Below are positions 1 through 24,974 of a DNA stretch of 24,974 bases, piece by piece. The notes under the pieces were generated by a model. It was not told the origin of the DNA. It was given only the letters and a program-made list of their open reading frames with translations, and searched no databases. The position numbers and the translations under genes were made by a program. The stretch lies in the NCBI RefSeq assembly GCF_004010195.1, contig NC_057719.1, forward strand, positions 34,818,399 to 34,843,372, written 5' to 3'. Position 1 is the stretch's first letter. The number at the start of each line of letters is the position of its first letter. The DNA is from Chiloscyllium plagiosum. Lineage: Eukaryota.

Positions 1-575
1 GTGAGGGGGGAGGTGTGGGCGCAAGTGTTGCACCTCCTGCGGTTGCAAGGGAAGGTGCCGGGAGTGGTGGTTGGGTCGGTGGGGGGTGTGGATCTGACAA
101 GGGAGTCGCGGAGGGAGTGGTCTCTACGGAAAGCTGATAGGGGAGGGGAGGGGAATATATCCTTGGTGCTGGGGTCTGTTTGGAGGTGGCGGAAGTGACG
201 GCGGATGATGCGCTGTACATGGAGATTGGTGGGGTGGTAGGTGAGGACCAGTGGGGTTCTGTCCTGGTGGCGGTTGGAGGGGCGGGGTTCAAGGGCGGAG
301 GAGCGGGAAGTGGGGGAGATGCGGTGGAGGGCACCGTCGACCACGTTGGGGGGGAAATTGCGGTCCTTGAAGAAGGAGGCCATCTGTGTTGTACGTATTT
401 TGAACTGGTCCTCCTGGGAGCAGATGCGGCGGAGTCGAAGGAATTGGGAGAATGGGATGGCGTTTTTACAGGGGGCAGGATGGGAGGAGGTGTAGTCCAG
501 GTAGCTGTGGGAGTCGGTCGGTTTGTAGTAGATGTCCGTGTTGATTCGGTCGCCTGAGATAGAAACAGAAAGGTC
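1..575 (-). mobile_element. Penelope-like retroelement fragment (RT C-terminal/thumb region and linker), running off the window start
   Basis: Minus strand translates DLSVSISGDRINTDIYYKPTDSHSYLDYTSSHPAPCKNAIPFSQFLRLRRICSQEDQF, typical of the PLE RT thumb. It is clearly homologous to about 13340-13900 in this window. CpGs are retained, suggesting a young or unmethylated copy. Confidence 0.85.
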
Positions 576-649
576 AACTTCAAACCCAGTCAGCGAGATG
601 AGATTTCCGAGCGGACCGCGATTCTTTGGTCCCCCCAACTGTAATTGAG

Positions 650-770: not shown

Positions 771-929
771 CAAGATTATAGAGTGGTGCTGGAAAAGCGC
801 AGCAGTTCAGGCAGCATCCGAGGAACAGGAGAATCGACGTTTCGGGCAAAAGCCCTTCATCAGGAATTCCCTGGTCCTCTGATGCTGCCGGATCTGCCTT
901 GCTTTTCCAGCATCCCACTCTAATCTTGA
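770..929. mobile_element. Palindromic non-autonomous PLE-derived element carrying a hammerhead motif
   Basis: Left arm tcaagattatagagtggtgctggaaaagc...gcagcatccgaggaacagg pairs with right arm cctggtcctctgatgctgcc...gcttttccagcatcccactctaatcttga. The same sequence family occurs at 13013-13090 and 14352-14486. Confidence 0.8.
831..869 (-). ncRNA. Minimal type I hammerhead ribozyme motif
   Basis: Minus strand reads gaauuc-CUGAUGA-a-GGGC-uuuu-GCCC-GAAAC-GUC-gauuc. All core nucleotides are present, with a 4-bp stem II and a palindromic ACGU stem III. Predicted cleavage is between 836 and 835. Confidence 0.8.
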
Positions 930-949
930 CTCGGCACATTTTGGCCCAG

Positions 950-1695: not shown

Positions 1696-3003
1696 ATGAG
1701 GTTCCGCATTTACAAGAGGAAAGTGCTGCTGCTGGCCCTCGTCATGCTGCTCGCCGCCTTCGTCTTGTGGACCGGCGGAAAGCAGAGGAAAAACGAAGCT
1801 TTTCCGAGGGACGACCAAACTTCACGGAGCAGCGGGAAAGCGGGCGCCGGGAACCCGACCAGGAAAGTTTCCAACGAGTCGCAGGCGAGCAAGTTCGAAA
1901 AGCCTGAGGTCGACAACCTGACTCTGGTGTACCGCGGCATCGTTTTCCAGCTGAACTTTGACCAGACGATCAGAAACCAGGAGACCATTAAGACTCGATC
2001 CCCAAATGATTTGGTGGTGGTGGTCCAAGTGCACAACAGACCGGAATACCTGCAGAGCCTCGTCAATTCGCTCAGAAAAGCCAAAGGAATAGGGAACGTA
2101 CTGCTGATCTTCAGCCACGACTTCTGGTCCCCGCAGATCAACCAGATCGTAGCCAGCGTCGATTTTTGCCAAGTGTTACAAATATTTTTTCCATTCAGTA
2201 TCCAGTTGTATCCCAACGAATTCCCTGGACACGATCCCAGAGATTGCCCTCGTGACATAAGCAAAGCGAATGCTTTCAAGCTGGGCTGTATCAATGCTGA
2301 GTATCAAGATTCATTTGGCCATTATCGAGAATCCAAATTTTGTCAGACCAAACATCACTGGTGGTGGAAGTTACATTTTGTTTGGGAAAGAGTAAAAGTT
2401 TTGGAAGATCATAAGGGGTTAGTGCTTTTCATTGAAGAGGACCATTATTTATCACCTGATTTCTATCATGTCATGAAAAATATGTGGCATCTGAAGACTG
2501 AAAGTTGCCCTGATTGTGACATATTGACCCTTGGTACATATACACGTGTCAGTGATTTCACAGATAAAACCAGTAAAGTGGAAGTGAAAACCTGGCGATC
2601 AACAGAACACAACATGGGCATGGCTATGACTAGAGAGACATATCAAAAACTGATAGAGTGCACAGATGCTTTCTGTGAATATGATGACTACAACTGGGAC
2701 TGGACATTACAGTATTTAACTGTATCCTGTCTGCCTCGGTATTGGAAAGTTATGGTCTGTGAGGCTCCTCGTATTTTCCATGCTGGTGATTGTGGCATGC
2801 ATCACAAGAAAGCTTGCATGCCATCTGCTGAAGTTGCTAAAATTGACAAGATTATAAGTAGCAACATACAGCACTTGTTTCCAGAAACAATGGCAATAAG
2901 TGAAATATATCCTTTGGCTGCAATCGGCCCACATGTGAAGAATGGAGGTTGGGGAGATATTAGGGACCATGAACTTTGTGCAAGTTACCGCCGGCTACAG
3001 TAA
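1696..3003 (+). CDS. MGAT2: Alpha-1,6-mannosyl-glycoprotein 2-beta-N-acetylglucosaminyltransferase (GnT-II), 435 aa, single coding exon
   Basis: N-terminus MRFRIYKRKVLLL followed by a type II signal anchor. Conserved VVQVHNRPEYL, QTKHHWWWK, EEDH metal-binding motif, YDDYNWDWTL and C-terminal NGGWGDIRDHELC. Confidence 0.98.
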   Translation: MRFRIYKRKVLLLALVMLLAAFVLWTGGKQRKNEAFPRDDQTSRSSGKAGAGNPTRKVSNESQASKFEKPEVDNLTLVYRGIVFQLNFDQTIRNQETIKTRSPNDLVVVVQVHNRPEYLQSLVNSLRKAKGIGNVLLIFSHDFWSPQINQIVASVDFCQVLQIFFPFSIQLYPNEFPGHDPRDCPRDISKANAFKLGCINAEYQDSFGHYRESKFCQTKHHWWWKLHFVWERVKVLEDHKGLVLFIEEDHYLSPDFYHVMKNMWHLKTESCPDCDILTLGTYTRVSDFTDKTSKVEVKTWRSTEHNMGMAMTRETYQKLIECTDAFCEYDDYNWDWTLQYLTVSCLPRYWKVMVCEAPRIFHAGDCGMHHKKACMPSAEVAKIDKIISSNIQHLFPETMAISEIYPLAAIGPHVKNGGWGDIRDHELCASYRRLQ

Positions 3004-3450: not shown

Positions 3451-4464
3451 CATAAATTACTGTCTCTACAAAAAAAGAGCAGCAGAATTTTGTTTTTGCT
3501 TAAAGAAAAATATGTCCTTGTAGCAAGAGTTAACATTTTCTTCATTAACTTTATATATGTTCTGGGTGACTGAAGAGAAAATGGTCTATGCAGCTGTAAG
3601 AAGGCAAAGAAGCCAAAGGTGTTCATTTCATGTCATGGGTGTAATTTTTTAAGAATTCTGTTTTCATCATTCAGTTTATTTTACAAATGGGTCTTGTTTA
3701 GCTCAATATTGTCACTGCACTTAGTGTTTCAGTTAACAATAAGAAAGTCCCATAGAAATATGCCTTAATGGGTGATGTATGCGTGTCAGCCTGTTTATCA
3801 CCTAAACTACTTCTGCCATCAGTAACAAACCTGCAGCAGGAAATATGAAGTTCAAAATGCTCCTCCATATAATACCCAGAATTTTCAAAATTCAAATAAA
3901 ATTAATATGAAAAAATAATCGGTACTATTATTTCAAATTGTCATAAAAGAAAACACCCACAATGCAACTGGCTGAAAATTTCACCCAATGTAAGTCTTGG
4001 TGACAATACTGTTCACTTAAAGCACAAATCTGTAATTATTTGAAACAGCAATGCAATATTTTCAGTTAAATATTTGCAGTGGCATTTAAGAAACCTGGCA
4101 TGTATTCCCTTACCCCATTCACCTCAGTTGTTTGTCAGGTTCAGCTTACTTAACTGTTGTTGCTTCATGGCAGTTTGAGACACTGTTACATACCTGAAAC
4201 TTTCCATTGTTCAAAGCCTTGGTTGAATTTTAAAAAATATTTCAGTGTAAAACCACCTCAAATAAAAGGAATAGAAAAGCAATTCTTTGTGAAAATGGAA
4301 GAGATATTTTACCACAACGTACCTTCAATTTTTTCTTAAGACTTTGGTTCACACTATTTTGCTTTTTAAGGACTTAAAAGTTTCCCCCAAAAATCTGTAT
4401 TAATATGATTTTAAACTATGCATGGGAGGAAACAACTATGAAGCATTTTTTTTTAATTTATTTG

Positions 4465-4600
4465 TGTGTGGATGTTATCAGCAAGACCAATCTTTGTTGC
4501 CCATCCCCAACTACCTTTGAGAAAGTGATGAAGTCCTATCTTGAACTGTTGGTGCGGTTGTTGGTATGCCCATAGTACTGTTAAAAGAGCTATAGGTTGT
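4465..4600 (-). repeat. Diverged LINE/SINE 3' tail
   Basis: Preceded by a T-rich tract. tgtggatgttatcagcaagaccaatctttgttgccc resembles the reverse complement of the tail at 16255-16355. Confidence 0.4.
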
Positions 4601-4764
4601 TTTCATATGAATATCTTTTATCCACATGGAAACTTAAGTAAACATTTCTGTGTCATTCTAATGATATCACCTTTCAGAAGCACCTTGATTCAGCAAGAAT
4701 ACACAAAACAACAGTAACCACAACTTTATTTTAAAAATTAGAAACCTGAGATTTGAAGTGCAAT

Positions 4765-5000
4765 AGTCCAAGGCACTTTACAAGTGCCTTATTATACAAA
4801 ATAGGGCAAGAAGCCACACAGAGATTTTATGTCAGACAACTAAAAGCTTTGTCAAAGAGGCATGTTTTAAAGAGGGAAATGGAGGCTAAAGAGATGTGGA
4901 AGAGTATTCTGCAGCTCGAGGCCATGACACTGAAGGCATGGCCATCAATGGTTGAACAAGTGGTGATGCAGATATGGCCAGAATTCGAACACAGAATCAG
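4765..5000 (-). mobile_element. Degenerate L2-like LINE 3' fragment
   Basis: ccaaggcacttta...aaagctttgtcaaagaggcatgttttaa...ctgaaggcatggccatcaatggt resembles an antisense L2 3' end. Recalled, not searched. Confidence 0.45.
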
Positions 5001-5619
5001 TACTTAAAAGAATTTTTTTAAAAAGGTAATTTATTTGACAGAATTGATTACAGATAGTTTCTCTCATTCAGACTTTTAAACGTTTCTTTCCCTCCCCTTT
5101 TATTTCAAAAGCATTAAGCTTGATTTCATTCTAGATTAGGTTCCGTGTTTGTAGGTTAACCAAATTCACAACCTACATGTTTGGAAGGGGTATTGTTGGC
5201 ACTTATTTGACTGCAGCATGTCCTCAGAATACTGATTAGCATTATTTGCTTTCTCAACTGGTGCTGGGGACACCTTAGATCAGACTTGAAACATTAGTCA
5301 ATGTGATTTAATTAGTCTTGAGAATTATGTTCTTATACATACAGACAATCAGAATATGTATAAAATGTAAAATTCAGACTAAAAAGTACAAATTTTAAAT
5401 TCAATAAGGGAAGCACAGTCTGATAACCTGCAAGTAACAAAGACAGCAGTGAATCGTGGCACCATAAATGTGTCAAAGTTCCTAATTCAAGTCTCTCACT
5501 CTTTGGACTTTCAGAACATTTCAGTTTTAGAAAAATGTTATTGTTTGATCTAGTCACTTTGTCAAAAAAAACTGAACACATCTACATTATCAATCTATAT
5601 AAATGTTTTGGAATGAGAA

Positions 5620-6512
5620 CATAGGAGGTATGGTTTGTAGATAACACCAAAATTAGAGTACTGGACAGCGAAGAAGGCTACCTTAGAGTACAACGGGATC
5701 TTAATCAAATGGGCCAGTGGGCTGAGGAGTGGCAGATGGAATTTAATTTAGATAAGTGTGAAATGTTACATTTTGGAAAGGCAAATCAGGGCAGGTCTTA
5801 TACATTTAATACTAAGACTTTGGAGTGCAAGTTGATAGCTCCTTGAAAGTGGAATTCCAGGTAGGTGAGTGTAGGTGGCGTTTGGTAAGCTTGCTTTTAT
5901 TGGTCAGTGTATTGAGTACTATTTGAGTTGGGAGGTCATATTGTGGCTGTATAGGACATTGGTTAGGCTCCAATTGTACTGCATACAATTCTGGTAGTCT
6001 TGCTTTAGGAAGGATGTTGTGAGACTTGAAAGAGTTCAGAAAAGATTTACAAGGATGTTGCCAGAGTTGGAGGTTTTGAGCTATTGGGAGAGGCTGAATA
6101 GTCTGAGGCTATTTTCCTTGGAGTATCAGAGGCTGAGGGGTGGCCTTGGAGGTTTATAAAATATTCGGGGGCATGGATAGGCTGAGTAGACAGGGTCTTT
6201 TCCCTGGGGTGGGGGAATCCAAAACTAGAGGGCACAGGTTTAAAGTGAGAGAAGAAAGATTTAAAAGGGACCTAAAGGGAAACATCTTCACACACATGGT
6301 GGTGCATGCTTGGAACGAGTTGCCAGAGGGAGTGATTGAGGCTGGTACAATAACAACATTTAAAAGGCATCTGGATGGGTATATAAATTGGAAGGGTTTA
6401 GAGGGATACAGACCAAATGCTGGTAAATGGAACTAGATTAACTTAGGATACCTGGTCAGGATGGACAAGTTGAACCGAAGCGTCTGTATTCATGTTGTAC
6501 AACTCTATGGCT
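5620..6512 (+). mobile_element. 5'-truncated CR1 LINE (RT C-terminus plus 3' tail)
   Basis: Remnant peptides WAEEWQMEFNLDKCEMLHFG, LERVQKRFTRMLP and KTRGHRFKV...FTHMVVHAWNELP. Ends in a ...gtacaactctatg tail. Confidence 0.92.
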
Positions 6513-6659
6513 GAAAACTTGGACTAACATTTACTTGAACCCCTCCAAGATTAAAATGTGGAAGGACAGAAAAATAGTTAGATAATATATGTATTGAGTA
6601 AAAAGATTTTCTGGATGTCATTGATTCTTTCAACAGTTTCCTTAAGCTCTGCATCCTCT

Positions 6660-7010
6660 GTTCAATTTTCTGTCATTGGCAATCAATGTCAGCAATTCAG
6701 GTCAAGGAAAGTAGTGGTCCTAGTGCTGACCCTGGGGACCTCCATTGTATTTCTTTCCTCCAATCTAATAAACATACATTCAAAACTGCTTTGTCTCCTG
6801 TCACTCAGTCAACTTTATATTTATTTAGTTACTGCCCTTTTATTCCAATGGCATTGACGTTGTTGGCAAATCATGTCATTTTATTAAGACTCCTGTAAGT
6901 CTGTGTGCCTCACATGCTCATCAATAACTTCATCAAAAAAACACAATTAGTGGATTTCCTTAATTTATGCACACCTGTCCAAGTAACCTAATTTTGTCCA
7001 GGTCATTGTT
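6660..7010 (-). mobile_element. Highly degenerate CR1-like fragment
   Basis: gtagtggtcctagtgctgaccctgggga and following AT-rich sequence resemble antisense CR1 RT (GVPQGSVLGP region). Confidence 0.4.
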
Positions 7011-7899
7011 TCTAAAATCTTTCACACCATTCTTCGCACCCTTTCTTTTGAGAAGGACAAAAGATTTCCAATTTTTCTGTACCCTACAGTTTTGCCCAGT
7101 GCACCCTTACTTCAGCATCCTGGGACGCATCACATTCATATTTGATTATTTTTCAACTTTTATGTAGAGCCAATCTTTCTAATACTTCCTCTAAGTGTTT
7201 ACTTACTTCAATATCCAAACTACCTCTTTTTTCACTATGATTTGGATAACCTTTTCTTCTGTTGTAAAAAGTGCAATTAATGTATTTGAGATGAAAATGC
7301 TCAACTTAAAAGAATCACTTGACAATTGAGTGCACTGCAGGTGACTTATGAAATCGGTGCAATAGTCTCCTTCATCCAGAAGTCCAACAGCTCTTCCCCA
7401 TTTATCCCAGACAAAATCTAATTTCCATATATTCAGATTCTTCAAATGTAATATTCTAAAAACTTCCAATTTTCAAATCTTTATTGCAGTCATTCCTCCC
7501 AACCTTTGAAATCTCTTCCAGTCATTTGCCTGTGCCAAAATTTCTACCCCTCCAGCCTTGAATTACTCTTGTCCATTTCTTGCTTAATTCTAATTACTTC
7601 CAGCTTGAAGATTCCTCCTAAAATACCTGTCTCCACCTTCCCTAGTACCCATCTGAAGCTCTTGTCAAACAGATAGAGGAGCAGCACTTGAATCTTGCAA
7701 TTCATATTGGCAAGATTTAATCCATCAGAAGGTTGAAGAATAGTGTATGTAATTTCCCATGAGTATTTTTGTTTGTAACTCTTCAACTAGGGAACCAATA
7801 AGTTTGAATATTGATATTACTAAGAATATTGGTGGCAGTGTCTTTTAGCTCAAAGTGAATTGCTGTTTGAACATGCTTGTTTTCTTCCATGATGTTGTA

Positions 7900-8115
7900 G
7901 CTGGAGCTTCAGATAGCAGTGGGAGAGGCTGCAATTTTCGTTTTAGCATATGCCTGTCTAGGTACCCGCTCCTGTCAATGGCATGCATTGAAAGGATTAA
8001 GGTTAATCATCACTGTTTAGCTGCATTATGAATGATTTTCCTTGGCCATCAAGTCTTGAGGTGGAACTCAGATCCACAGCTTCTGGTGCAGAGGTAGGGA
8101 AGCTGCCCACTGCAT
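7900..8115 (-). repeat. Degenerate tRNA-derived SINE-like remnant
   Basis: Minus strand gcagtgggcagcttccctacctctgcaccagaagctgtggatctgagttccacc resembles a decayed A-box/B-box SINE head. Confidence 0.3.
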
Positions 8116-8399
8116 TATTACTATAATCTTAAGATAACAGTGATCACAAACTCTCCAAAAAACAACAAAGAATTTTGGAATCACTTGATAATTTAATAAT
8201 AAATTAGTTTTGGCATTGTAAATCCCTTGATCGGATGCAGAAATAACAATTTTAACAAACAAGATAAACAAAGATTATACTGTATACTTGCCAGGTAAAG
8301 TTAATTGCAAGAGATGCAACAAAAACAGGAATGATAATACATAGCTGAAAAAAATCAGCTGTTCCTGAGAAGTCTGCAGACTTAATTACAAATCACAAA

Positions 8400-9375
8400 C
8401 TATGCTTGCAGTATGTCACAAGGATCAATGCTGAGTCCACTGCTTTCGTCATTTAAATCAAAGATTTGGATGTTAACATAGGAAGTACAATTAGTGAGTC
8501 TGCAGCAAAAATGGAGCTGAAGTGGACAGTGAAGGTTATGTCCGAGTACAAGGGGATCTTGATCAGATGGGCCGATGAGTAGCAGACGGGGTTTAATTTA
8601 GATAAATATGAGGTGCTGCATTATGTAAAGGCAAATCAGGGCAGGGCTTAGACACGTAATGGTAAAATCCTGGGGAGTGTTGCTGAACAGAGACCTTGGA
8701 GTTCAGATTCATAGTTCTTTGAAAGTGGAGTTGCAAGTAGAGAGGATCATGAAGGAGATGTTTGATATGCTCACCTTTATTGATCTTTTATTGAAGTTGG
8801 GAGGTCATATTGCAACTGTACAGGACATTGGTTAGGCCACTATTGGAATATTGCTTGTAGTTCTGGTGGTCTTGCTTTAGGAAGGATGTTGTGAAATTTG
8901 AAAGGGTTTAGAAAAGATTTACAAGGATGTTGCCAGGGTTAGAGATATAGGGAGAGGCTGAATAGGCTGGGGCTTTTTCCTGTAGTGTTGGAAGCTGAGA
9001 TGTGACCTTATGGAGGTGTATAAAATCAGAAGGGCATGGCTAGAGTAAATAGACAAGGTCTTTTCCCTGGGGTAGGGAATCCAAAACTAGAAGGCATAGG
9101 TTTAAGGTGATAGGGGCAAGATTTAAAAGAAGCCTAAAGGGCAAGTTTTTCACACAGAGGGTGGTGCATGTATGGAACAAGCTACTAAAGGAAGTGGTGG
9201 AGGCTGGTACAATTACATTTAAAAGGCATCTACATGAGTATATGAATATCAAGGATTTAGAGGGATATAGGTCAAATGCTGGCAAATGGGACTTGATTTA
9301 TTTAGAATATCTGAATAGCATAGATGAGTTGGACCAAAACGTCTGTTTCCATGCTGTACATCTCTGACTCTATGG
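8400..9375 (+). mobile_element. 5'-truncated CR1 LINE
   Basis: Homologous to 5620-6512. Peptides FTQRVVHVWNKL and TITFKRHL. Tail gtctgtttccatgctgtacatctctgactctatg. Confidence 0.92.
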
Positions 9376-9599: not shown

Positions 9600-10289
9600 T
9601 TAGTCTAGTTGATACAACTCCATACTTTGGAAATTGAATGCAGATTTTGTTTTATGGTCACTTATAATCTTAACACTTTGGTCATTGGGATTGATTTCCT
9701 CAAGAATTTGCAGTGGAGCCGTAGTATTAATAAACTCGGGAGTGTTCTCATCTTTCTGGTTATTTGGAAGGTCATCTTCATCAAGTACATTATCATCTAC
9801 TTTTGTACACTGTTTAAAATGTACTGATTTTTCACAGTTTACAAGTAGAGGTTCATCATTTATAGATAGTGGCTTGTCAACATATATTGTACTTGCGTGA
9901 GAGGGTGACATATTTGACTCACTTTTCATTTTAACCTCACTAGTAAGTTTACTCGCATTAACAGAAGTCCAACAGTTACTGTGCGTCAATTGATTCATGT
10001 CATAATTTGGAACTTCATTATTTGTTCCTTCTCCTGCATTAGTCGTTTCCAAAAAATTATCAGTGCCTGCCATAGCAACTAATTGGTATTTGTCATTAGA
10101 TACAAATTCAGCAGCATCATTTGCCAATGGTGTCTCTTCTTCCAATATTTTACCTTCTGCAATAGATTCAGAAAAACTGGTTTCTTCTGTCTGTTGTTGA
10201 ACGTTTGCAGCATTACAAGCTTCATTGTGTTTAACTCTGTCTGGTTTCAGAGAAAATCCATGGGAACTGGTGTTCTCACTCTCCTGAAG
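9600..10289 (-). CDS. DNAAF2: DNAAF2 last coding exon (exon 3)
   Basis: Acceptor ttttataatttcag|CTT at 10290/10289, phase 0, open to TAA at 9600. Ends HKTKSAFNFQSMELYQLD, matching the conserved kintoun C-terminus. An in-frame alternative AG lies 6 nt downstream. Confidence 0.88.
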   Translation of the reverse strand, partial: LQESENTSSHGFSLKPDRVKHNEACNAANVQQQTEETSFSESIAEGKILEEETPLANDAAEFVSNDKYQLVAMAGTDNFLETTNAGEGTNNEVPNYDMNQLTHSNCWTSVNASKLTSEVKMKSESNMSPSHASTIYVDKPLSINDEPLLVNCEKSVHFKQCTKVDDNVLDEDDLPNNQKDENTPEFINTTAPLQILEEINPNDQSVKIISDHKTKSAFNFQSMELYQLD

Positions 10290-10313
10290 CTGAAATTATA
10301 AAATCAACAATAT

Positions 10314-13008: not shown

Positions 13009-14152
13009 GTCAAAGAGTGTGGTGCTGGAAAAGCACGGCTGGTCAGGCAGCATCTGATGAGCAGGAGAGCAAAGCTCTTCATCAGGAATGATGGGGTGAC
13101 CCAAGGAGTCAGAGATAAATGGGGGGAGTGGTGAAGAGGTAGCTGTGAATGCGATAGGTTAGTGTTGCTTAGTGTGTGTGCCCCAGAGATGTTCTCTGAA
13201 ACGTTCTGCAAGTTGCCGTCCTGTCTCCTCAATGTAGAGGAGACCACAGTGAGAGCAACAGACACAGTAAATGACGTATGTGGAAGTACAGTTAAATCTT
13301 TCTTGGATGTGGAAGGATCCTTTGGAGCTGGACGGAGGTGAGGAGGAAGTGTGGGCGCAGGTTTTGTACTTCTTGCTGTGGCAGGGCAAGATGCTAGGAA
13401 TGGAGGGTGGGTTGGTGGGGGGCATGCACCGAACAAGGGAATTGTGGAGGGAATGGTCTCTCCAAAACACAGATGAGGGTGGGGGAGGGGAATATATCCC
13501 TAGTAGTGGGGTCTGTTTTTAGGTGGCAGAAATGGCAGAGGATGATATATTGTATCCGGACATTGATGGGGTAGAAGGTGAGAACTGGGAGGTTCTGTTC
13601 TTGTTGCAATTGGAGGGTGGGGTTCAAGGGTGGAGGTGCAGGAAGTGAAGGAGATGTGTTGGAGGGCATCGTTGACCACATGGGAGGGGAAATTGCAGTC
13701 TTTGAAGAACAAGGCCATCTGGGATGTTTTATGGTGGAATTGGTCCTCCGGGGAGCAGATGCAGCAGAGGCGGAGGAGTTGGGAATAAGGGATAGCGTTT
13801 TTACAGGAGGCAGGGTGGGAGGAGTTGTAGTCCAAGTAGCTGTAGAAGTTGGTGGGTTTGACATAGATGTCTGTGTTGAGTCGATCGCTGAAAATGGACA
13901 GGTCCAGGAAGGAGAGGGAGGTGTCTGAGATGGTCCAGATGAACTTGAGGTCAGGGTGGAAGATATTTGTGAAGTTGCTGAACTGTTAACTTCCTCGTGG
14001 GAGCACGAAGTGGTACAGACACAGTCACCAATGTAGCGGAGGAAAAGATGGGGAATGGTGTTGATGGACTGGTCCACATACCTGACGAAGAGGCAGGCAT
14101 AGCTGGGGCTCATGCAGGTGGTCTGGAGGAAGTGGGAAGATTCGAAGGAGAG
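13009..14152 (-). mobile_element. Decayed Penelope-like element (RT plus GIY-YIG endonuclease plus terminal repeat) with 8-bp TSD
   Basis: Peptides MSPSYACLFV...FLRYIGDC (RT), DYNSSHPASCKNAIPYSQLLRL and FNCTSTYVIYCVCCSHCGLLYIEETGRQLAERFREH (GIY-YIG). Flanked by gtttctca at 13001-13008 and 14153-14160. Confidence 0.9.
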
Positions 14153-14351
14153 GTTTCTCAACCCCATTCTCCCACTCTCTCCCCTTAAACCTTGATCCCC
14201 TTGACAATCAAGAACCTATCTATCTCTACCTTAAATAAAAATGACCTGGCCTCCACAGCCTTCTGTGGCAATGAATTCCATCGATTCACCACTTTCTCAC
14301 TGAAGAAGTTTCTCCTTCTCAGTTTTAAAGGCTCTTCCCTTTATTCTAAAG

Positions 14352-14486
14352 GTTTCATTCCTGATGAAGGGCTTTTGCCCGAAACGTCGATTTTCCTGTT
14401 CCTCGGATGCTGCCTGACCTGCTGTGCTTTTCCAGCACCACTCTAATCTAAACTCTGGTTTCTAGCATCTGCAGTCCTCACTTCTG
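14352..14486 (+). mobile_element. 135-bp non-coding hammerhead-containing insertion with 14-bp TSD
   Basis: Flanked by cctttattctaaag (14338-14351) and cctttactctaaag (14487-14500). The body matches the reverse complement of about 772-867. Confidence 0.85.
14357..14392 (+). ncRNA. Minimal type I hammerhead ribozyme motif
   Basis: auuc-CUGAUGA(14361-14367)-a-GGGC-uuuu-GCCC-GAAAC(14381-14385)-GUC-gauu. Predicted cleavage after 14388. Confidence 0.8.
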
Positions 14487-16254
14487 CCTTTACTCTAAAG
14501 CCATGCCCATGGGTCCTAGTCTCTTCTACACATGGAAACATTTTCGCAACATTAACTCTGTCCAGGCTATTCAGTATTCTGTAAGTTTCAATTAGATTCC
14601 CCCCTCATCCTTCTAAACTCCATCAAGTATAGACCCAGAGTCCTCAAATGTTCTTCATATGTTTTGCCTTTCACTTCTGGGATCGTGAACCCCATCTGGA
14701 CTCACTCCAGGACAAGTACATCCCTCCTGTGGTATGGGGCCCAAAATTGCTCACAATACTCTCATGTGGTCTGACTAGAAGCACATCCCTGCTTTTATAT
14801 TCTAGTCCTCTCAAAAGAAGTACCAATACTGTATCTGCCTTCCGAACTACCAACTCAACTTGCAAGTTTATCTGAAGAGAATCCTGGACTAGAACTTCCA
14901 AGTCCCTTTGCACTTGAGATTTCTGAATTTTCTCCCCATTTGTGCATGGCCTCTCACTTTCCCACGTTGTATTCCATTTGTCACCTCTTTGCCCACTCTC
15001 CTAACCTGTTTAAATCCTTCTGTAGCCTCCCTGCCTCCTCAATGCTACCTATCCCTCTACCTTTGTATCATTTGCAAAGTTAGCTAGAATACCCTCAGTT
15101 CCTTCATCTAGATAATTAATATATATGATGTACAAGTGGGAAACGACTCAATCCCAACAACCATTTATAGTATATCTAAAAATATAATCAATTATGTGAG
15201 GTTTTTGCCATATAATTGTGTATGAGATTGTGCAGCATAATATGGGCATATTTTAAGATGGAAAGAAAGTATTCCTGAATCACTACAGCACTACTGCCTT
15301 TCCTAGTCAACAATTTTCTATGTAAGACATACTTGAATCCATTACACTGTATATAGCTCACAGTGTGGTCCACTTCAAACTGGAAACCCACTCAGCTCAA
15401 AATCTCTATTGCAGGTTTAATCTTTATTGTGATGACACATTGACTTCTCCCATTCCCATACCTTGATTTCTACAATACTGATATGTAAAAACTCAATTTT
15501 CTTTTGTATCTTTGATTATGGACTGAAATGGGGAAAAGACAATTTAAAAAAAAACCAAGGATTGTGAGAGATTGTTGGATTCTATGAAAGCAAGCTACCA
15601 GCACTAATCAAAGTGCTGTTTATGCTGTTATTTGTTCAACCAGTGGAAGAAGGTTTAGTTGCAGAGGGACTAGAACCAGGGAATGAGTAAAATAATTAGG
15701 TTCAGCTAGCAACAAGTAGCTAATTGGCCTGTGGAATGATGAGTAGTTTGCTTATCAAAAACAATGTGATTGGTTAACTATCTGAAAAGTCAGTTTGTGG
15801 GTATAAATAATTAGTCATAAAAGATTGAACATCCATAAAGAAAGAAGCTGTCTTTGCAGTAAAACAAAATGCCTGAAGAAAGCCTGCTTAATTTCCCTCA
15901 CCAATTGCTGGGTGCTATGGCTTTTAACCACAAAGTCAGAGACCATATAATCTGTCAAACTCTGCCTCCTACAAGAACATGAAAGTATCTGAAGACAAAG
16001 AGGGATCGCCAAACAAGCCCTAGCAAGCCAAAAGGATTACCTCAGAGATCCCTGTGAATGAGGAATATTGAACTGCCTTCCCAATTTTCTCCTCCAACGG
16101 CAACACCCTTTTTTGTTTTACTGTCTATAACTGCGTGTGTATATGAAGACTCTATAAGGGTATTAAAGTTTTAAGTTGAGTTATACGTTGGCATTTCATA
16201 ATTGTTTACTTCATCATCGCTGGGTCCAAATCTGAAAATTCTCTTCCAAATGGG

Positions 16255-17721: not shown

Positions 17722-18502
17722 NNNNNNNNNNNNNNNNNNNNNNNNNNNNNNNNNNNNNNNNNNNNNNNNNNNNNNNNNNNNNNNNNNNNNNNNNNNNNNN
17801 NNNNNNNNNNNNNNNNNNNNNNNNNNNNNNNNNNNNNNNNNNNNNNNNNNNNNNNNNNNNNNNNNNNNNNNNNNNNNNNNNNNNNNNNNNNNNNNNNNNN
17901 NNNNNNNNNNNNNNNNNNNNNNNNNNNNNNNNNNNNNNNNNNNNNNNNNNNNNNNNNNNNNNNNNNNNNNNNNNNNNNNNNNNNNNNNNNNNNNNNNNNN
18001 NNNNNNNNNNNNNNNNNNNNNNNNNNNNNNNNNNNNNNNNNNNNNNNNNNNNNNNNNNNNNNNNNNNNNNNNNNNNNNNNNNNNNNNNNNNNNNNNNNNN
18101 NNNNNNNNNNNNNNNNNNNNNNNNNNNNNNNNNNNNNNNNNNNNNNNNNNNNNNNNNNNNNNNNNNNNNNNNNNNNNNNNNNNNNNNNNNNNNNNNNNNN
18201 NNNNNNNNNNNNNNNNNNNNNNNNNNNNNNNNNNNNNNNNNNNNNNNNNNNNNNNNNNNNNNNNNNNNNNNNNNNNNNNNNNNNNNNNNNNNNNNNNNNN
18301 NNNNNNNNNNNNNNNNNNNNNNNNNNNNNNNNNNNNNNNNNNNNNNNNNNNNNNNNNNNNNNNNNNNNNNNNNNNNNNNNNNNNNNNNNNNNNNNNNNNN
18401 NNNNNNNNNNNNNNNNNNNNNNNNNNNNNNNNNNNNNNNNNNNNNNNNNNNNNNNNNNNNNNNNNNNNNNNNNNNNNNNNNNNNNNNNNNNNNNNNNNNN
18501 NN
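17722..18502. other. Assembly gap
   Basis: Run of N. Confidence 1.
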
Positions 18503-18985: not shown

Positions 18986-20030
18986 CAGGATAGACCGGAT
19001 CTAAAAGTTGAAATTCTAAATTGGAGAAAAGCCAATTTTGACAGTATTAGGCAAAAACTTTCGAAAGCTGATTGGAGGCAGATGTTCTGATTGTTGGGCC
19101 TCTTGCTGAGATATTTGTATCATCGATAGTCACAGGTAAGGTGCCGGAAGACTGGAGGTTGGCAAATGTGATGCCACTGTTTAAGAAGGGCGGTAAAGGG
19201 ATGGCTGGAAAATGGGAAGCCTTCAGAAATGAGATAACAAGAATCCAGAGAAAGTATATTCCTGTCAGGGTGAAAGGAAAGGCTGGTAGGTATAGGGAAT
19301 GCTGGATGACTAAAGAAATTGAAGGTTTGGATAAGAAAAAGGAAGCATATGTCAAGTATAGACATGCTAGATCGAGTGAAACCTTAGAAGAGTATAAAGG
19401 AAGTAGGAGTATACTTAAGAGGAAAATCAGGAGGGTAAAAAGGGGACATGAGATAGCTTTGGCAAATAGAGTTAAGGAGAATCCAAAGGATTTTTACAAA
19501 TATATTAAGGACAAAAGGGTAACTAGGGAGAGAATAGGGCCCCTCAAAGATCAGCAAGGCGGCCTGTGTGTGTAGCCACAGAAAATGGGGGAGATATTAA
19601 ATGAGTATTTTGCATCAGTATTTACTGTGAAAAAGGATATGGACGATATAGACTGTAGGGAAATAGATGGTGACATCTTGCAAAATGTCCACATTACAGA
19701 GGAGGGAGTGCTGGATGTCTTGAAACAGGTAAAGGTGGATAAATCCCCAGGACCTGATCAGATGTATCCAAGAACTCCGTGGGAAGCCAGAGAACTGATT
19801 GTTGGGCCTCTTGCTGAGATATTTGTATCATCGATAGTCACAGATAAGGTGCCGGAAGACTGGAGGTTGGCAAACGTGGTGCCACTGTTTAAGAAGGGCG
19901 GTAAAGGGATGGCTGGAAAATGGGAAGCCTTCAGAAATGAGATAACAAGAATCCAGAGAAAGTATATTCCTGTCAGGGTGAAAGGAAAGGCTGGTAGGTA
20001 TAGGGAATGCTGGATGACTAAAGAAATTGA
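18986..20030 (+). mobile_element. CR1 ORF2 inter-domain region with internal 708-bp-period duplication
   Basis: Peptides LNWRKANFDSIR, KENPKDFYKYI, EILNEYFASVFT, KSPGPDQMYPR, VPEDWRLANVVPLFKKG. 19087-19322 is repeated at 19795-20030. Confidence 0.9.
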
Positions 20031-20653
20031 NNNNNNNNNNNNNNNNNNNNNNNNNNNNNNNNNNNNNNNNNNNNNNNNNNNNNNNNNNNNNNNNNNNNNN
20101 NNNNNNNNNNNNNNNNNNNNNNNNNNNNNNNNNNNNNNNNNNNNNNNNNNNNNNNNNNNNNNNNNNNNNNNNNNNNNNNNNNNNNNNNNNNNNNNNNNNN
20201 NNNNNNNNNNNNNNNNNNNNNNNNNNNNNNNNNNNNNNNNNNNNNNNNNNNNNNNNNNNNNNNNNNNNNNNNNNNNNNNNNNNNNNNNNNNNNNNNNNNN
20301 NNNNNNNNNNNNNNNNNNNNNNNNNNNNNNNNNNNNNNNNNNNNNNNNNNNNNNNNNNNNNNNNNNNNNNNNNNNNNNNNNNNNNNNNNNNNNNNNNNNN
20401 NNNNNNNNNNNNNNNNNNNNNNNNNNNNNNNNNNNNNNNNNNNNNNNNNNNNNNNNNNNNNNNNNNNNNNNNNNNNNNNNNNNNNNNNNNNNNNNNNNNN
20501 NNNNNNNNNNNNNNNNNNNNNNNNNNNNNNNNNNNNNNNNNNNNNNNNNNNNNNNNNNNNNNNNNNNNNNNNNNNNNNNNNNNNNNNNNNNNNNNNNNNN
20601 NNNNNNNNNNNNNNNNNNNNNNNNNNNNNNNNNNNNNNNNNNNNNNNNNNNNN
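20031..20653. other. Assembly gap
   Basis: Run of N. Confidence 1.
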
Positions 20654-21087
20654 AGGGAGAGGCTGAACAGGCTGGGGCTATTTTCCCTGGAACATCGGAG
20701 GCTGAGGGGTGACCTTATAGAGGTTTACAAAATTATGAGGGGCTTGGATAGGATAAATAGGCAAAGTCTTTTCCCTGGGATCGGGGAGTCCAGAACTAGA
20801 GGGCATAGGTTTAGGACGAGAGGGGAAAGATATCAAATAGACCTAAGGGCCAACTTTTTGACGCAGAGGGTGGTGCGTGTATGGAATGAGCTGCCAGAGG
20901 AGTGGTGGAGGCTGGTACAATTGCAACATTTAAGAGGCATTTGGATGGGTATATGAATAGGAATGGTTTGGAGGGATATGGACCAGGTGCTGGCAGGTGG
21001 GACTAGATTGGGTTGGCATATCTGGTCGGCATGGACGGGTTGGACCGAAGGGTCTGTTTCCGTACTGTACATCTCTATGACTCTATG
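20654..21087 (+). mobile_element. CR1 LINE 3' end (young copy)
   Basis: RERLNRLGLFSLEHRRLRGDLIEVYKIM...RTRGH...TQRVVRVWNELP. Ends ctctatgactctatg. Confidence 0.95.
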
Positions 21088-21168
21088 CACAGATTCATTA
21101 TAGAAGGCAGAACAATTAATGTAGCAATTTTGTATATGGCATGACATTTTTGGAATCAACAAAGTTAC

Positions 21169-23082
21169 CTGCAAACAGTTGCACGATTCTCCAGCATGAA
21201 AGCTTTGCCACAAGCCTCGACACTCTGGTGACTTCATTAACACGACTGCAGCATTGTCTTTAGATATATTAACTATGCTTTCTGTGGTGTCCAGCTGATG
21301 TTCTGGAGGAAATTGAACAATCAAGGAATATAAAACATCAGAGTCCTGAGTCCCAAATACAACCCTATAGTCATGAGTGTGAAGTACTGACTTGAAGCTT
21401 TCTTCATTAACATTTTGCACATGCAGTACGAATGTTATAGAGTCTTTATTTTGATGGTAATGGAAATCAGGACATACCGGTTCTGTTTTCTTTAAACAGT
21501 CACCATAGTAGAATGCAGTGTTTGCAGATGAATCTGCACCTACATCTACCTGTTCACCTACAGAATGACTGCATACCTTTTCCAAAGTCCCAAGAGATTC
21601 TTTTCCACTCATTGCAATGGCACCTTCTTTTGCAACATTTTCATGTTCTTCAGGATCTACCTCTGAAACAAGTTTGGAAGTAGCAATTACATCATTTGGT
21701 TTTCCTAAAGTATTATTTGAAACTATCGCAGCCTCTTTAGCAGTTGACTCTGTAAAGGTTTTGCTTTCGCTCAGTTTGAAGTGTTCATTGTTCTCAGATT
21801 GCACCAAATTGGAAACCTGCAAGGTGCTAAATTCAAATTCACTTTCTGGATTCACACCATCACCAAAATGCCCTCCATTTTGTTGATGTGAATGTCCTTC
21901 AAGCTGAAAATCTGATTTACAAAGTAACTGGCCACTCTCTGTGGACTCATTACTAGTTTGTTTAAAGTCACCAGCAGGAAACTGTCCCACTTCTAGGGCT
22001 TGCCTCATAGGTAGCACAGGCAAAGTAACCACAAGCTGCCTCTTAGATTTGTTAAACATAGCTGACCCCAGATTTTCATCTACTGGATAAGGTAGACGCA
22101 AATCAAGCTTGTAAGCTGGTTTCTGTGACTCCAAACTTAAAAATTGCTCAGTTACATCTAAACAAGCATTCTCAGCAGACTTAAGCAAAGGGAGGTCAAT
22201 AGCAATCACCAGCTCTTTAGGTCTGGTGCTGGAAGCAGCTTCACGAGCATATCGGTAATCTTGCAAATCAATATGTGACCTGTGAATAATGGAGTATTTG
22301 GGTTGAGTAGATTTGCTGTCTTGTGATTTTGTATTCTTGTCCTTCATTGCAGATTCTGAACTTTTGTTTGTTGTTTTAGATTGTGTGCCATGCCCAGAGG
22401 GAGTTTCTGACTTTAGGGAACCATAGGGATAAGGAAACTGTAAAGGGTCATCATCATCTGGAGGTTTCTTGGGAACACCAGGAATAGGTTTTCGAATGAC
22501 AGCAGCCTCGGGCATTCCCTTGTAACTTACTTTTAAAGTTTTAACATTTCTTGAATCTAGTTTGGCATTTAGTTGCTTCTCTATCACTTCAATTGAAGTT
22601 TGATCTACCATTGTTTTGAACTTCTTGTTTTTATTCGCCATGTACAAAGTGTCTGGATGAAACACCACATCATATATCATGTGTTTTCTGCCACCTTTAC
22701 CCAGATCTTCTCTCCCCGGCGCCAGACTGTATGGAAGAGACCAATGTTGTCCGACCGTCCCGTTGGCACCCTTTTCAGCTTTGCAAAAGGGTTTATGTAT
22801 CAGGTCGTTGCTGCAGACGTTGATGAAACATTTCTGGTCCCCATTAACGCTGGTTTTGAGAACATAACCAGGGTTGGGATGCACGAACTTAATGTCCATG
22901 CCCCTCTCTTTTTCGAGTTGAGTGATTTCCTCTTCGTACTTTTTCTTATTTTCCGGACTGGAAATTTCCTCCGCGTATTCACACAGCATTTTTCTAAACT
23001 TTTCATCTTTAAACGCTGTGGAAAAGCGCTCCACTTCGTCCCGGGTCAAGTCCAACTCCTCGAGTTTCGAAAAAGACGCCAT
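21169..23082 (-). CDS. DNAAF2: DNAAF2 (kintoun/PF13) exon 1: PIH1 N-terminal and CS domains, 638 codons
   Basis: MASFSKLEELDLTRDEVERF...EYAEEI...KFVHPNPGYVLKT...FINVCSN...WSLPYSL...YDVVFHPDTL...RPKELVIAIDLPLL...LPYPVDE. ATG at 23082 in aacATGG context; donor CAG|gtaact at 21169/21168. Confidence 0.96.
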
Positions 23083-23127
23083 GTTATAGGTCCACCTCAA
23101 CGCGTCTACATCCGCCGTCGCAGATGT

Positions 23128-23137
23128 TTGACGTCAA
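23128..23137. promoter_or_regulatory. Palindromic CRE site
   Basis: TTGACGTCAA about 50 bp upstream of the DNAAF2 ATG. Confidence 0.4.
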
Positions 23138-23869: not shown

Positions 23870-24240
23870 TGGAGGTCCCAGTCTTGGACTAGGATGGACA
23901 AAGTCAGAAGTCACATGACACCAAATTATGGTCTAATAGGTTTTTTCAAAATCACAAGCTTTTGGAGCACTGCTCCTTCGTCAGGCACAGAATTTATAAG
24001 CAGAGAGATAATAGCAAGATAATTCCAGGCAATTAAGAGTGTCAAAAGACTTTATACTTAAGTCTTTTGACACTCTTAATTGCATGGAATTATTTTGCCA
24101 TTATCTCTCCACTTATAAATTCTGTGCCTGTGCGCTCCCTCCACTTCACCTGACAAAAGGAGCAGTGCTCTGAAACTTGTGATTTTAGATAAATCTGCTG
24201 GACTTTAATCTCGTGCCATGTGACTTCTGACTTTGTTCAT
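23870..24240. mobile_element. Long palindromic PLE-type terminal-repeat element with two decayed hammerhead motifs
   Basis: Arms 23894-24052 and 24060-24240, with a perfect central 24-bp stem. Hammerhead-like cores at 23953-23985 (-) and 24147-24181 (+). Confidence 0.75.
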
Positions 24241-24289
24241 ATGAGTCAGGACTTATTTGTTGAAGTATTTTTAACATAATAAAATGTTG

Positions 24290-24690
24290 TGGTTCTGTTC
24301 GCCGAGCTGGAAGCTTTTGTTGCAAACGTTTCGTCCCCTGTCTAGGTGACATCCTCAGTGCTTGGGAGCCTCCTGTGAAGCGCTTCTGTGGTGTTTCCTC
24401 CGGCATTTCGAGTGGCCTGTCCCTGCCGCTTCCGGTTGTCAGTTTCAGCTGTCCGCTGTAGTGACCGGTATATTGGGTCCAGGTCGATGTGTTTGTTGAT
24501 GGAGTTTGTGGATGAGTCCAATGCTTCTAGGAATTCCCTGGCTGTTCTTTGTTTCGCTTGCCCTATAATGGTAGTCTCCCAGTCAAATTCATGTTGCTTG
24601 TCGTCCACGTGTGTGGCTACTAGGGATAGCTGGTCGTGTCATTTCGTGGCTAGTTGATGTTCATGGATGCGGATTGTTAGCTGTCTTCCT
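24290..24690 (-). mobile_element. Penelope-like element 3' end (GIY-YIG C-terminus plus terminal repeat), a family distinct from 13009-14152
   Basis: Minus-strand peptide RIHEHQLATKRHDQLSLVATHVDDKQHEFDWETTIIGQAKQRTAREFLEA...INKHIDLDPIY. Confidence 0.85.
24322..24361 (-). ncRNA. Minimal type I hammerhead ribozyme motif
   Basis: gca-CUGAGGA-u-GUCaCCU-agac-AGGgGAC-GAAAC-GUU-ugc: stem I gca/ugc, stem II of 6 bp with one mismatch, palindromic ACGU stem III. Confidence 0.7.
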
Positions 24691-24974
24691 TAGTAGCCAC
24701 ACACGCAGACGACAAGCAACATGAATTCGACTGGGACAACACTACCATTATAGGGCAAGCGAAACAAAGAACAGCCAGGGAATTCCTAGAAGCATGGCAC
24801 TCATCCACAAACACCATCAACAAACACATCGACCTGGACACAATATACCGGCCACTACAGCGGACAACTGAAACTGACAACCAGAAGCGGCAGGGACAGG
24901 CCACTATAAACACCGGAGGAAACACCACAGAAGCGCTTCACAGAAGGCTCCCAAGCCCTGAGGATGTCACCTAG
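24691..24974 (+). mobile_element. Inverted second copy of the same PLE 3' end, running off the window
   Basis: Reverse complement of 24342-24622. The hammerhead begins again at 24958 (CTGAGGATGTCACCTAG). Confidence 0.88.

Follow-up and report, generated by a model that had tools for sequence, protein, structure and literature searches.

A 135-nt hammerhead insert in a shark genome, probably a very short copy of the end of a PLE

Metazoan Penelope-like elements (PLEs) carry minimal hammerhead ribozymes (min-HHR) in their terminal repeats. Most of these are found singly, as motifs of truncated elements, and they are characterized by an intact core, an extra nucleotide after position 9, the pair G10.1-C11.1 and a palindromic helix III (Cervera and De la Pena 2014, PMC4209133). 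Solo minimal hammerheads of truncated PLEs are already published there for other animals, and the published motifs cut poorly even as dimers. The Poseidon element PAc of Anolis carolinensis carries a hammerhead followed by approximately 85–120 nt, with two ends that lie a 30–40-nt tail apart; its hammerhead needs protein for cleavage and is dispensable for insertion, and the tail is bounded by a pair of internal RT start sites, of which the main one lies 111–118 nt beyond the point where stem II starts (Frangieh et al. 2024, PMC11167929). PLE insertions in Adineta vaga comprise a pseudo-LTR (pLTR), a tail, an inverted partner and an 8–10-bp target-site duplication (TSD) (Arkhipova et al. 2013, PMC3846280; see Craig et al. 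2021, PMC8557442, for the general scheme). Animal non-LTR retrozymes, in turn, are defined by tandem units with at least two hammerheads, and those described in 2020 have canonical hammerheads and RNA circles (Cervera and de la Pena 2020, PMC7229834).

Here, we analysed a 24,974-nt stretch of Chiloscyllium plagiosum DNA (hereafter the window) that contains a hammerhead module standing alone between target-site repeats. A single copy of this kind is ordinary; the family to which it belongs is useful for asking how PLEs terminate reverse transcription and restore their pseudo-LTRs. The locus resembles the Adineta vaga PLEs in its optional 31-nt tail, in an overlapping head-to-head inverted partial copy, in its TSD and in having a non-LTR element as target, whereas its module is shorter (approximately 100 versus 193–218 nt) and occurs solo with a TSD, solos being without one there (PMC3846280). 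It shares with Anolis PAc the arrangement of hammerhead, following segment and two alternative ends, and in both cases RNA ends at the cut site are not seen; unlike PAc, the shark element has a CX4CXXC linker, and its hammerhead does not open a long ORF (PMC11167929). With the retrozymes it has in common a non-coding body, a type I hammerhead, kinship to PLE pseudo-LTRs and the occurrence of solo monomers (PMC7229834; Li, Clavereau and Pollet 2026, bioRxiv 10.64898/2026.07.22.740005), but the present copy consists of one minimal-hammerhead unit whose ends are of PLE type. The abundance of the module seems, short of a copy count, to be far above the 4,000–9,000 reported for coelacanth and Xenopus (PMC4209133). 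No shark is named in the accessible text of that paper or in two of its three supplementary files, and the papers listed by our literature searches included no shark description of this hammerhead-module PLE family. Two DNA patterns derived from the module had 0 loci each in metagenome, viral and prokaryote collections.

A short insert in a CR1-type host repeat

The insertion site and the parts of the insert are as follows (positions in the window; the basis is given last).

14180..14700, minus strand: host repeat, a CR1-type LINE whose decayed reading frame (3′ part) is split by the insert (14200–14700 examined; probably longer)
14338..14351, plus strand: left TSD copy, CCTTTATTCTAAAG (direct-repeat comparison and chance control)
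14352..14486, plus strand: 135-nt insert, read as a PLE terminal module of hammerhead, remaining pseudo-LTR and tail (repeats, alignment, public runs)
14352..14354, plus strand: three nucleotides unlike the upstream sequence of the module family (from family reads going loose at 14355–14358)
14355..14360, plus strand: 5′ strand of stem I, with two canonical pairs beside the core and a third past a U-U mismatch
14361..14368, plus strand: catalytic core CUGAUGA and an extra A ahead of stem II; the core starts 9 nt after the insert start
14369..14380, plus strand: stem II, GGGC-UUUU-GCCC (sequence and folding)
14381..14388, plus strand: GAAA-CGU-C, the second core half with stem III; predicted cut after C14388
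14389..14455, plus strand: remaining pseudo-LTR, up to the tail-less 3′ end common to the three other window copies (alignment; loose 3′ ends at 14441 and 14449)
14456..14486, plus strand: optional 31-nt tail, present in one of four window copies (alignment; 454 RNA reads go loose at 14483)
14487..14500, plus strand: right TSD copy, CCTTTACTCTAAAG, whose initial CC is possibly element-derived

The label CR1 for the host LINE is our assignment from its motif and not from a library match. The repeats CCTTTATTCTAAAG and CCTTTACTCTAAAG are identical at 13 of 14 positions and enclose 135 nt; when 3,000 random window positions were scored at equal spacing, only this site reached 14 nt, the other 2,999 remaining at 11 or below. 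Since the initial CC of the right repeat could derive from the element, the TSD is 12–14 nt long, and because homology to the module family begins at about 14355, the first three nucleotides of the insert may be untemplated. Deletion of the insert together with one repeat rendered the host frame continuous and allowed it to be aligned with a CR1 copy at 20654–20960. Furthermore, one contig of the public DNA run X8 bridged positions 14309 and 14492 by 34 other letters; it represents a related host repeat in which the site occurs once. None of the contig pieces listed spanned the insertion junctions of 14352–14486. Collectively, the near-identical repeats, the chance control, the restored host frame and the single-site contig establish that the 135-nt insertion with its TSD at 14338–14500 is genuine, in agreement with the earlier note, which had proposed such a TSD-flanked non-coding insert from the letters alone. 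Within it, an ATG in the hammerhead core opens 17 codons and is followed by a stop. A protein search with a 51-codon frame examined five candidates and gave no match. The only match to the module's 30-codon frame, P0121, was rejected as repeat-summed noise, about ten residues being aligned with a 15-fold repeat protein; P0121 comes from an ENA contig and is a 784-aa frame of approximately 15 near-identical 51-residue units, that is, a tandem DNA repeat of about 153 nt.

The earlier note's account of the ribozyme also held, in that the insert starts 9 nt ahead of an intact CUGAUGA (14361), core and stem II recur identically at 836–863, and stem III is the loopless palindrome ACGU (14384–14387). 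The 28-mer running from the core through stem II to GUC has its identical counterpart on the minus strand, giving two matches in the window compared with none in 100 shuffles. Across 14361–14388, all core positions are intact, and the extra A, G10.1-C11.1 and palindromic helix III of minimal type I hammerheads are present. Helix I falls short of the usual 4–5 bp with two canonical pairs, whereas the copy at 779–867 has five with a bulge. The cut position after C14388 is presumed from standard hammerhead numbering. Among the motifs described by Cervera and De la Pena, the 2-bp helix I is like that of D. virilis, and the 4-bp helix II differs from the 7–8 bp of schistosome motifs (PMC4209133). 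Rfam searches gave no hammerhead match at E values up to 1 and no match of any kind across the insert.

Prediction for the monomer paired the core into an inactive hairpin at −11.4 kcal/mol. For the dimer, nearest-neighbour energies, which ignore tertiary contacts and protein, gave −13.3 kcal/mol for the active fold versus −28.5 kcal/mol for the best alternative; the insert as a whole did not fold clearly better than its shuffles (z −1.81; 11 of 200). According to these models, the hammerhead of this copy has no active fold alone and could cut only as a dimer, probably with the help of protein.

The parent element

The window contains four copies of the module, the insert at 14352–14486 and those at 779–867, 864–932 and 13012–13091. 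The latter three and the PLE fragments that accompany them are listed here.

3..578, minus strand: younger PLE frame of this type, 5′-truncated and still open where the window ends, its 3′ end lying beyond
779..867, minus strand: sister module, identical to the insert at 86 of 89 positions, tail-less, beginning about 4–6 nt before the core
864..932, plus strand: inverted partial module, head-to-head with 779–867, with homology that begins at the counterpart of 14389; identity to the insert 83%
13012..13091, minus strand: decayed sister module at the 3′ end of the PLE body, tail-less, with a deletion across stem II and GAAA-CGUC
13092..14167, minus strand: PLE body, 5′-truncated and frameshifted, with the C-terminal part of RT, a CX4CXXC linker, a GIY-YIG region and a short 3′ UTR

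The decayed sister lies approximately 1.3 kb from the insert and directly adjoins the RT and GIY-YIG body, which matched shark RT/GIY-YIG proteins with tblastn E values of 4.6e-71 to 9.4e-81. For the frame at 3–578 there were 172 longer relatives, the best five being 68–76% identical (whale shark, brownbanded bamboo shark and zebra shark). The three PLE fragments of the window had no Pfam match by themselves; among the relatives, P0001 scored above the GIY-YIG cut-off and P0005 passed RVT_1. Moreover, the zebra shark model P0004 (XP_059504218.1) reads through RT and GIY-YIG into a translation of the hammerhead at its extreme C-terminus. This translation is identical at 9 of 14 residues, with an E value of 4e-4 in the pairwise comparison but 0.30 among 121 proteins, and it lends modest independent support to the module being a PLE end.

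A CX2-5CXXC linker ahead of the GIY-YIG core is found in Neptune and Nematis and not in Penelope/Poseidon, according to Craig et al. (PMC8557442), and the frame at 3–578 carries such a linker as C-x4-C-x2-C. The window also displays other PLE hallmarks, namely an optional tail of the 30–40-nt class (31 nt here), an inverted partial partner and a TSD, which in PLEs is of variable length. Judged from these sequence features, the module represents the 3′ end of an endonuclease-positive PLE of Neptune/Nematis type (either of the two clades). The window holds no full-length PLE copy, and a pseudo-LTR ahead of the ORF start and an RNA 5′ end are therefore putative for this family.

The earlier note had left a choice between a SINE- or retrozyme-like family mobilised by PLE proteins and a heavily 5′-truncated PLE. 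The latter reading is supported by the RT and GIY-YIG element at 13012–14167, which ends in the same module, together with the tail, the TSD and the inverted partners. SINEs have a head derived from tRNA, 5S or 7SL RNA, providing a pol III promoter, and an A-rich or simple-repeat 3′ tail. The head of the insert is instead the hammerhead itself, its 3′ end is a PLE-type tail, and ARAGORN found 0 tRNA genes. A SINE- or retrozyme-like family is thus not upheld for this locus, which lacks a tRNA-type head, a tandem array (0 tandem repeats in the window) and a single exact 5′ end, and whose relatives continue into upstream PLE sequence on some public reads.

Three PLE-type ends are stacked at 690–932, approximately 770 nt upstream of the MGAT2 start, one of them (690–770) being an old PLE-type relic whose family likeness was judged by eye. 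The two arms of the 779–932 pair are 97% and 83% identical to the insert and may therefore differ in age and not stem from one event.

Where related copies end, and how the insert may have arisen

To follow the family beyond the window, we used contigs of the public DNA runs X1 and X8 and RNA reads of run X21. These runs contain at most 0.51 of the words of the window and may therefore derive from a related species. Summed contig depth does not equal copy number and was not used as such. In all three runs with reads, the module exceeded the best bin of the PLE body in depth (45-fold in X1, 51-fold in X8 and 50-fold in X21), an upper bound inflated by the body copy being only 70–89% identical to the younger copy, depending on the bin, which lowers body depth.

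At the 3′ side, the other three copies in the window terminate at positions corresponding to about 14455, and the insert is 31 nt longer. Loose ends lay at 14441 and 14449 in public contigs and at 14437–14444 and 14483 in RNA reads; some of the contig ends reflect subfamily indels, and the 31-nt segment at 14456–14486 is the optional 30–40-nt PLE tail. Both end types, with and without the tail, occur in the public runs. The end of the insert lies 118–119 nt past the start of stem II, a match to the Anolis spacing that is no more than suggestive, given the different clade and hammerhead spacing.

At the 5′ side, the most frequent loose ends among the best 18 of 3,726 entries fell at 14355, 14356, 14357 and 14358 in both DNA runs, with 795, 753, 825 and 526 contigs in X1 and 748, 636, 880 and 512 in X8. 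Agreement among the loose letters at these positions was 0.30–0.38, which by simulation equates to 0 to about 20% shared upstream sequence. At 14357 and 14358, agreement stayed at the background of 0.30–0.31 right up to the junction in both runs, and PLE 3′-UTR-like letters persisted in the consensus at 14355 and 14356. The loose 5′ letters of the RNA reads agreed at 0.44–0.57 and were partly PLE 3′-UTR-like, a larger share continuing into the PLE 3′ UTR than in DNA; together with the DNA consensus, this indicates that long copies exist. Because the reference lacks young upstream PLE sequence, such copies are forced loose at 14355–14358 and the pile-up is partly built in; contigs, moreover, favour copies with unique flanks, and several subfamilies with indels reduce agreement. 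Nevertheless, 5′ ends 3–6 nt before the core with mostly unrelated flanks suggest that truncation is biased and not random, and in our reading the preference for ending directly ahead of the core is real but fuzzy. With regard to the shared boundary that the earlier note had proposed to look for, the 5′ ends cluster within approximately 4–9 nt at the hammerhead front and do not share one exact position; the tandem arrays it had also proposed to look for did not appear in the window. Two of the loose-end consensuses have a pyrimidine tract and AG about 10–13 nt ahead of the module, which by its letters is a possible candidate splice acceptor resembling that of D. virilis.

Both DNA runs had, within the 15 of 979 joints listed, opposite-strand joints from 14355–14361 to 14394–14405, indicating that inverted partners usually begin just 3′ of the cut site, and the head-to-head pair at 779–932 in the window parallels these joints. 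In RNA run X21, 4,144 reads fell on the window, of which 3,767 were less than 95% alike to it; they thus derive mostly from other copies and do not imply expression of this one. The module was covered from both strands (1,172 versus 1,509 reads), 98% of the reads continuing into unlike sequence, and showed no pile-up of starts or ends, for which the fragmented poly(A) single-cell library is a weak test. Over the PLE body, reads were strand-biased at approximately 3–6 to 1 in many bins, the module itself being near even; given the usual library orientation, the bias is apparently antisense to the ORF.

We consider it likely, with a probability of about 0.68, that the insert arose as a very short retro-copy, taken from the end module of an endonuclease-positive Neptune/Nematis-type PLE and ending at the hammerhead front. 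By analogy with the Anolis PLE, the element's protein would nick chromosomal DNA and begin reverse transcription at an internal position of its own RNA, using either of two start sites about 30 nt apart that would yield tail-less or tailed 3′ ends, the outer site being the one used by this copy. Copying would then very often stop a few bases 5′ of the core, a tendency that is seen in the public runs with the bias described. Its cause may be that the template RNA has its 5′ end there, initiation in the upstream pseudo-LTR letting synthesis run off the RNA, or that the folded or protein-bound hammerhead halts synthesis. Staggered cleavage of the second strand would produce the 12–14-nt TSD, and the hammerhead would be a passenger in this copy. 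The D. virilis PLE has an internal promoter (PMC2377424) and an intron near its start that ends at helix I (PMC4209133), providing precedent for RNA landmarks at the hammerhead front. Against the analogy with Anolis, the core ATG opens only 17 codons here, unlike in that element.

Several other origins have to be weighed against this short-copy reading. The short modules could form a self-propagating non-autonomous family, transcribed from an own promoter or by read-through; PLE protein would copy them again in trans, as with a SINE but with no tRNA-derived head. The large excess of module over body, the clustered 5′ ends and the plentiful module RNA in X21 would all suit it, as would the presence in the module of the region equivalent to the protein binding and initiation region in Anolis (PMC11167929) and the trans mobilisation of a host gene by pseudo-LTRs alone in Adineta (PMC3846280). 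We nonetheless regard it as unlikely, given that 5′ ends are spread about evenly over four adjacent positions and differ between the two intact window copies, that the module lines up colinearly with the PLE end and lacks private sequence, and that its RNA comes from both strands and runs into unlike sequence as expected of copies within host transcripts. Plain random 5′ truncation, with very low processivity, no preferred stop and a boundary that is an effect of the reference, is quite improbable. PLE insertions are indeed heavily 5′-truncated (PMC8557442), the body copies of the window are cut at different points (578 and 14167), and the reference partly dictates where ends pile up; yet agreement remains at background right to the junction at 14357 and 14358 in both DNA runs, internal positions among the loose ends listed never reach the counts of 14355–14358, and both window copies with an intact core (2 of 2) begin within 9 nt of it.

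A longer pLTR-ORF-pLTR insertion whose terminal repeats had recombined would leave a solo pseudo-LTR with the same end structure and the original TSD, and solo pLTRs in Adineta were ascribed to recombination or deletion (PMC3846280). That origin seems very improbable here: the Adineta solos are without TSDs, approximately 100 nt of homology would be a small target for such a module excess, and inverted partners with varied starts point to events during reverse transcription. We consider it extremely improbable that the insert is a monomer from a non-LTR retrozyme array or from a hammerhead-made RNA circle. Families with solo monomers, related to pLTRs, do occur in one chondrichthyan genome (bioRxiv 10.64898/2026.07.22.740005), and a few joints of a kind not given lead from 14468–14483 back to 14395–14414; the window, however, has no tandem repeats, neither insert end lies at the cut site, circular permutation is absent, the 15 of 979 joints listed include no head-to-tail joint to 14355, and RNA starts and ends do not pile up, which in this library is a weak test.

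In its broadest form, the idea that in carpet sharks the module of about 100–135 nt is the dominant self-renewing mobile unit, short copies being re-transcribed and re-inserted by PLE protein and full-length elements bypassed, is doubtful. If true, the module would be a PLE-dependent equivalent of a SINE with no pol III head and with a 5′ edge fixed by the hammerhead fold or the RNA start, and the many sense and inverted copies carried by host transcripts could base-pair in trans via the ACGU palindrome, leading to cleavage of host RNAs. More generally, many short copies that end at the hammerhead front, and not at the cut site, would allow a direct sequence test of where the template RNA starts, and repeat libraries may misfile such stubs as SINEs or unclassified repeats.

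Other features of the window

Two further hammerhead-type repeats lie towards the right end of the window. At 24342–24974 lies a head-to-head palindrome with 234-nt arms (94%) from a second PLE family; it includes a C-terminal GIY-YIG remnant, which we take to be Poseidon-like from its look. A different minimal hammerhead, likewise intact, forms the end of the left arm, with its core at 24358 on the minus strand and a loopless ACGU stem III. A third palindromic repeat at 23887–24247 has damaged cores at 23984 (minus strand) and about 24150 (plus strand), with the palindrome AGCU at the stem III position. Three weak Rfam miRNA matches sit on the centre of this third palindrome (24014–24100), far under the curated scores, and were rejected.

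A direct repeat of 236 nt with 99% identity (19087–19322 and 19795–20030) lies in a CR1-type element between the assembly gaps at 17722–18502 and 20031–20653, and is possibly an assembly artefact. The single-exon host gene MGAT2 occupies 1696–3003 on the plus strand (Pfam E 3.6e-160). A large host exon with PIH1 domains at 20836–23133 on the minus strand presumably belongs to DNAAF2/kintoun, and the frame at 9600–10295 (minus strand) may be a further exon of this PIH1-domain gene, which would place the insert in its intron.
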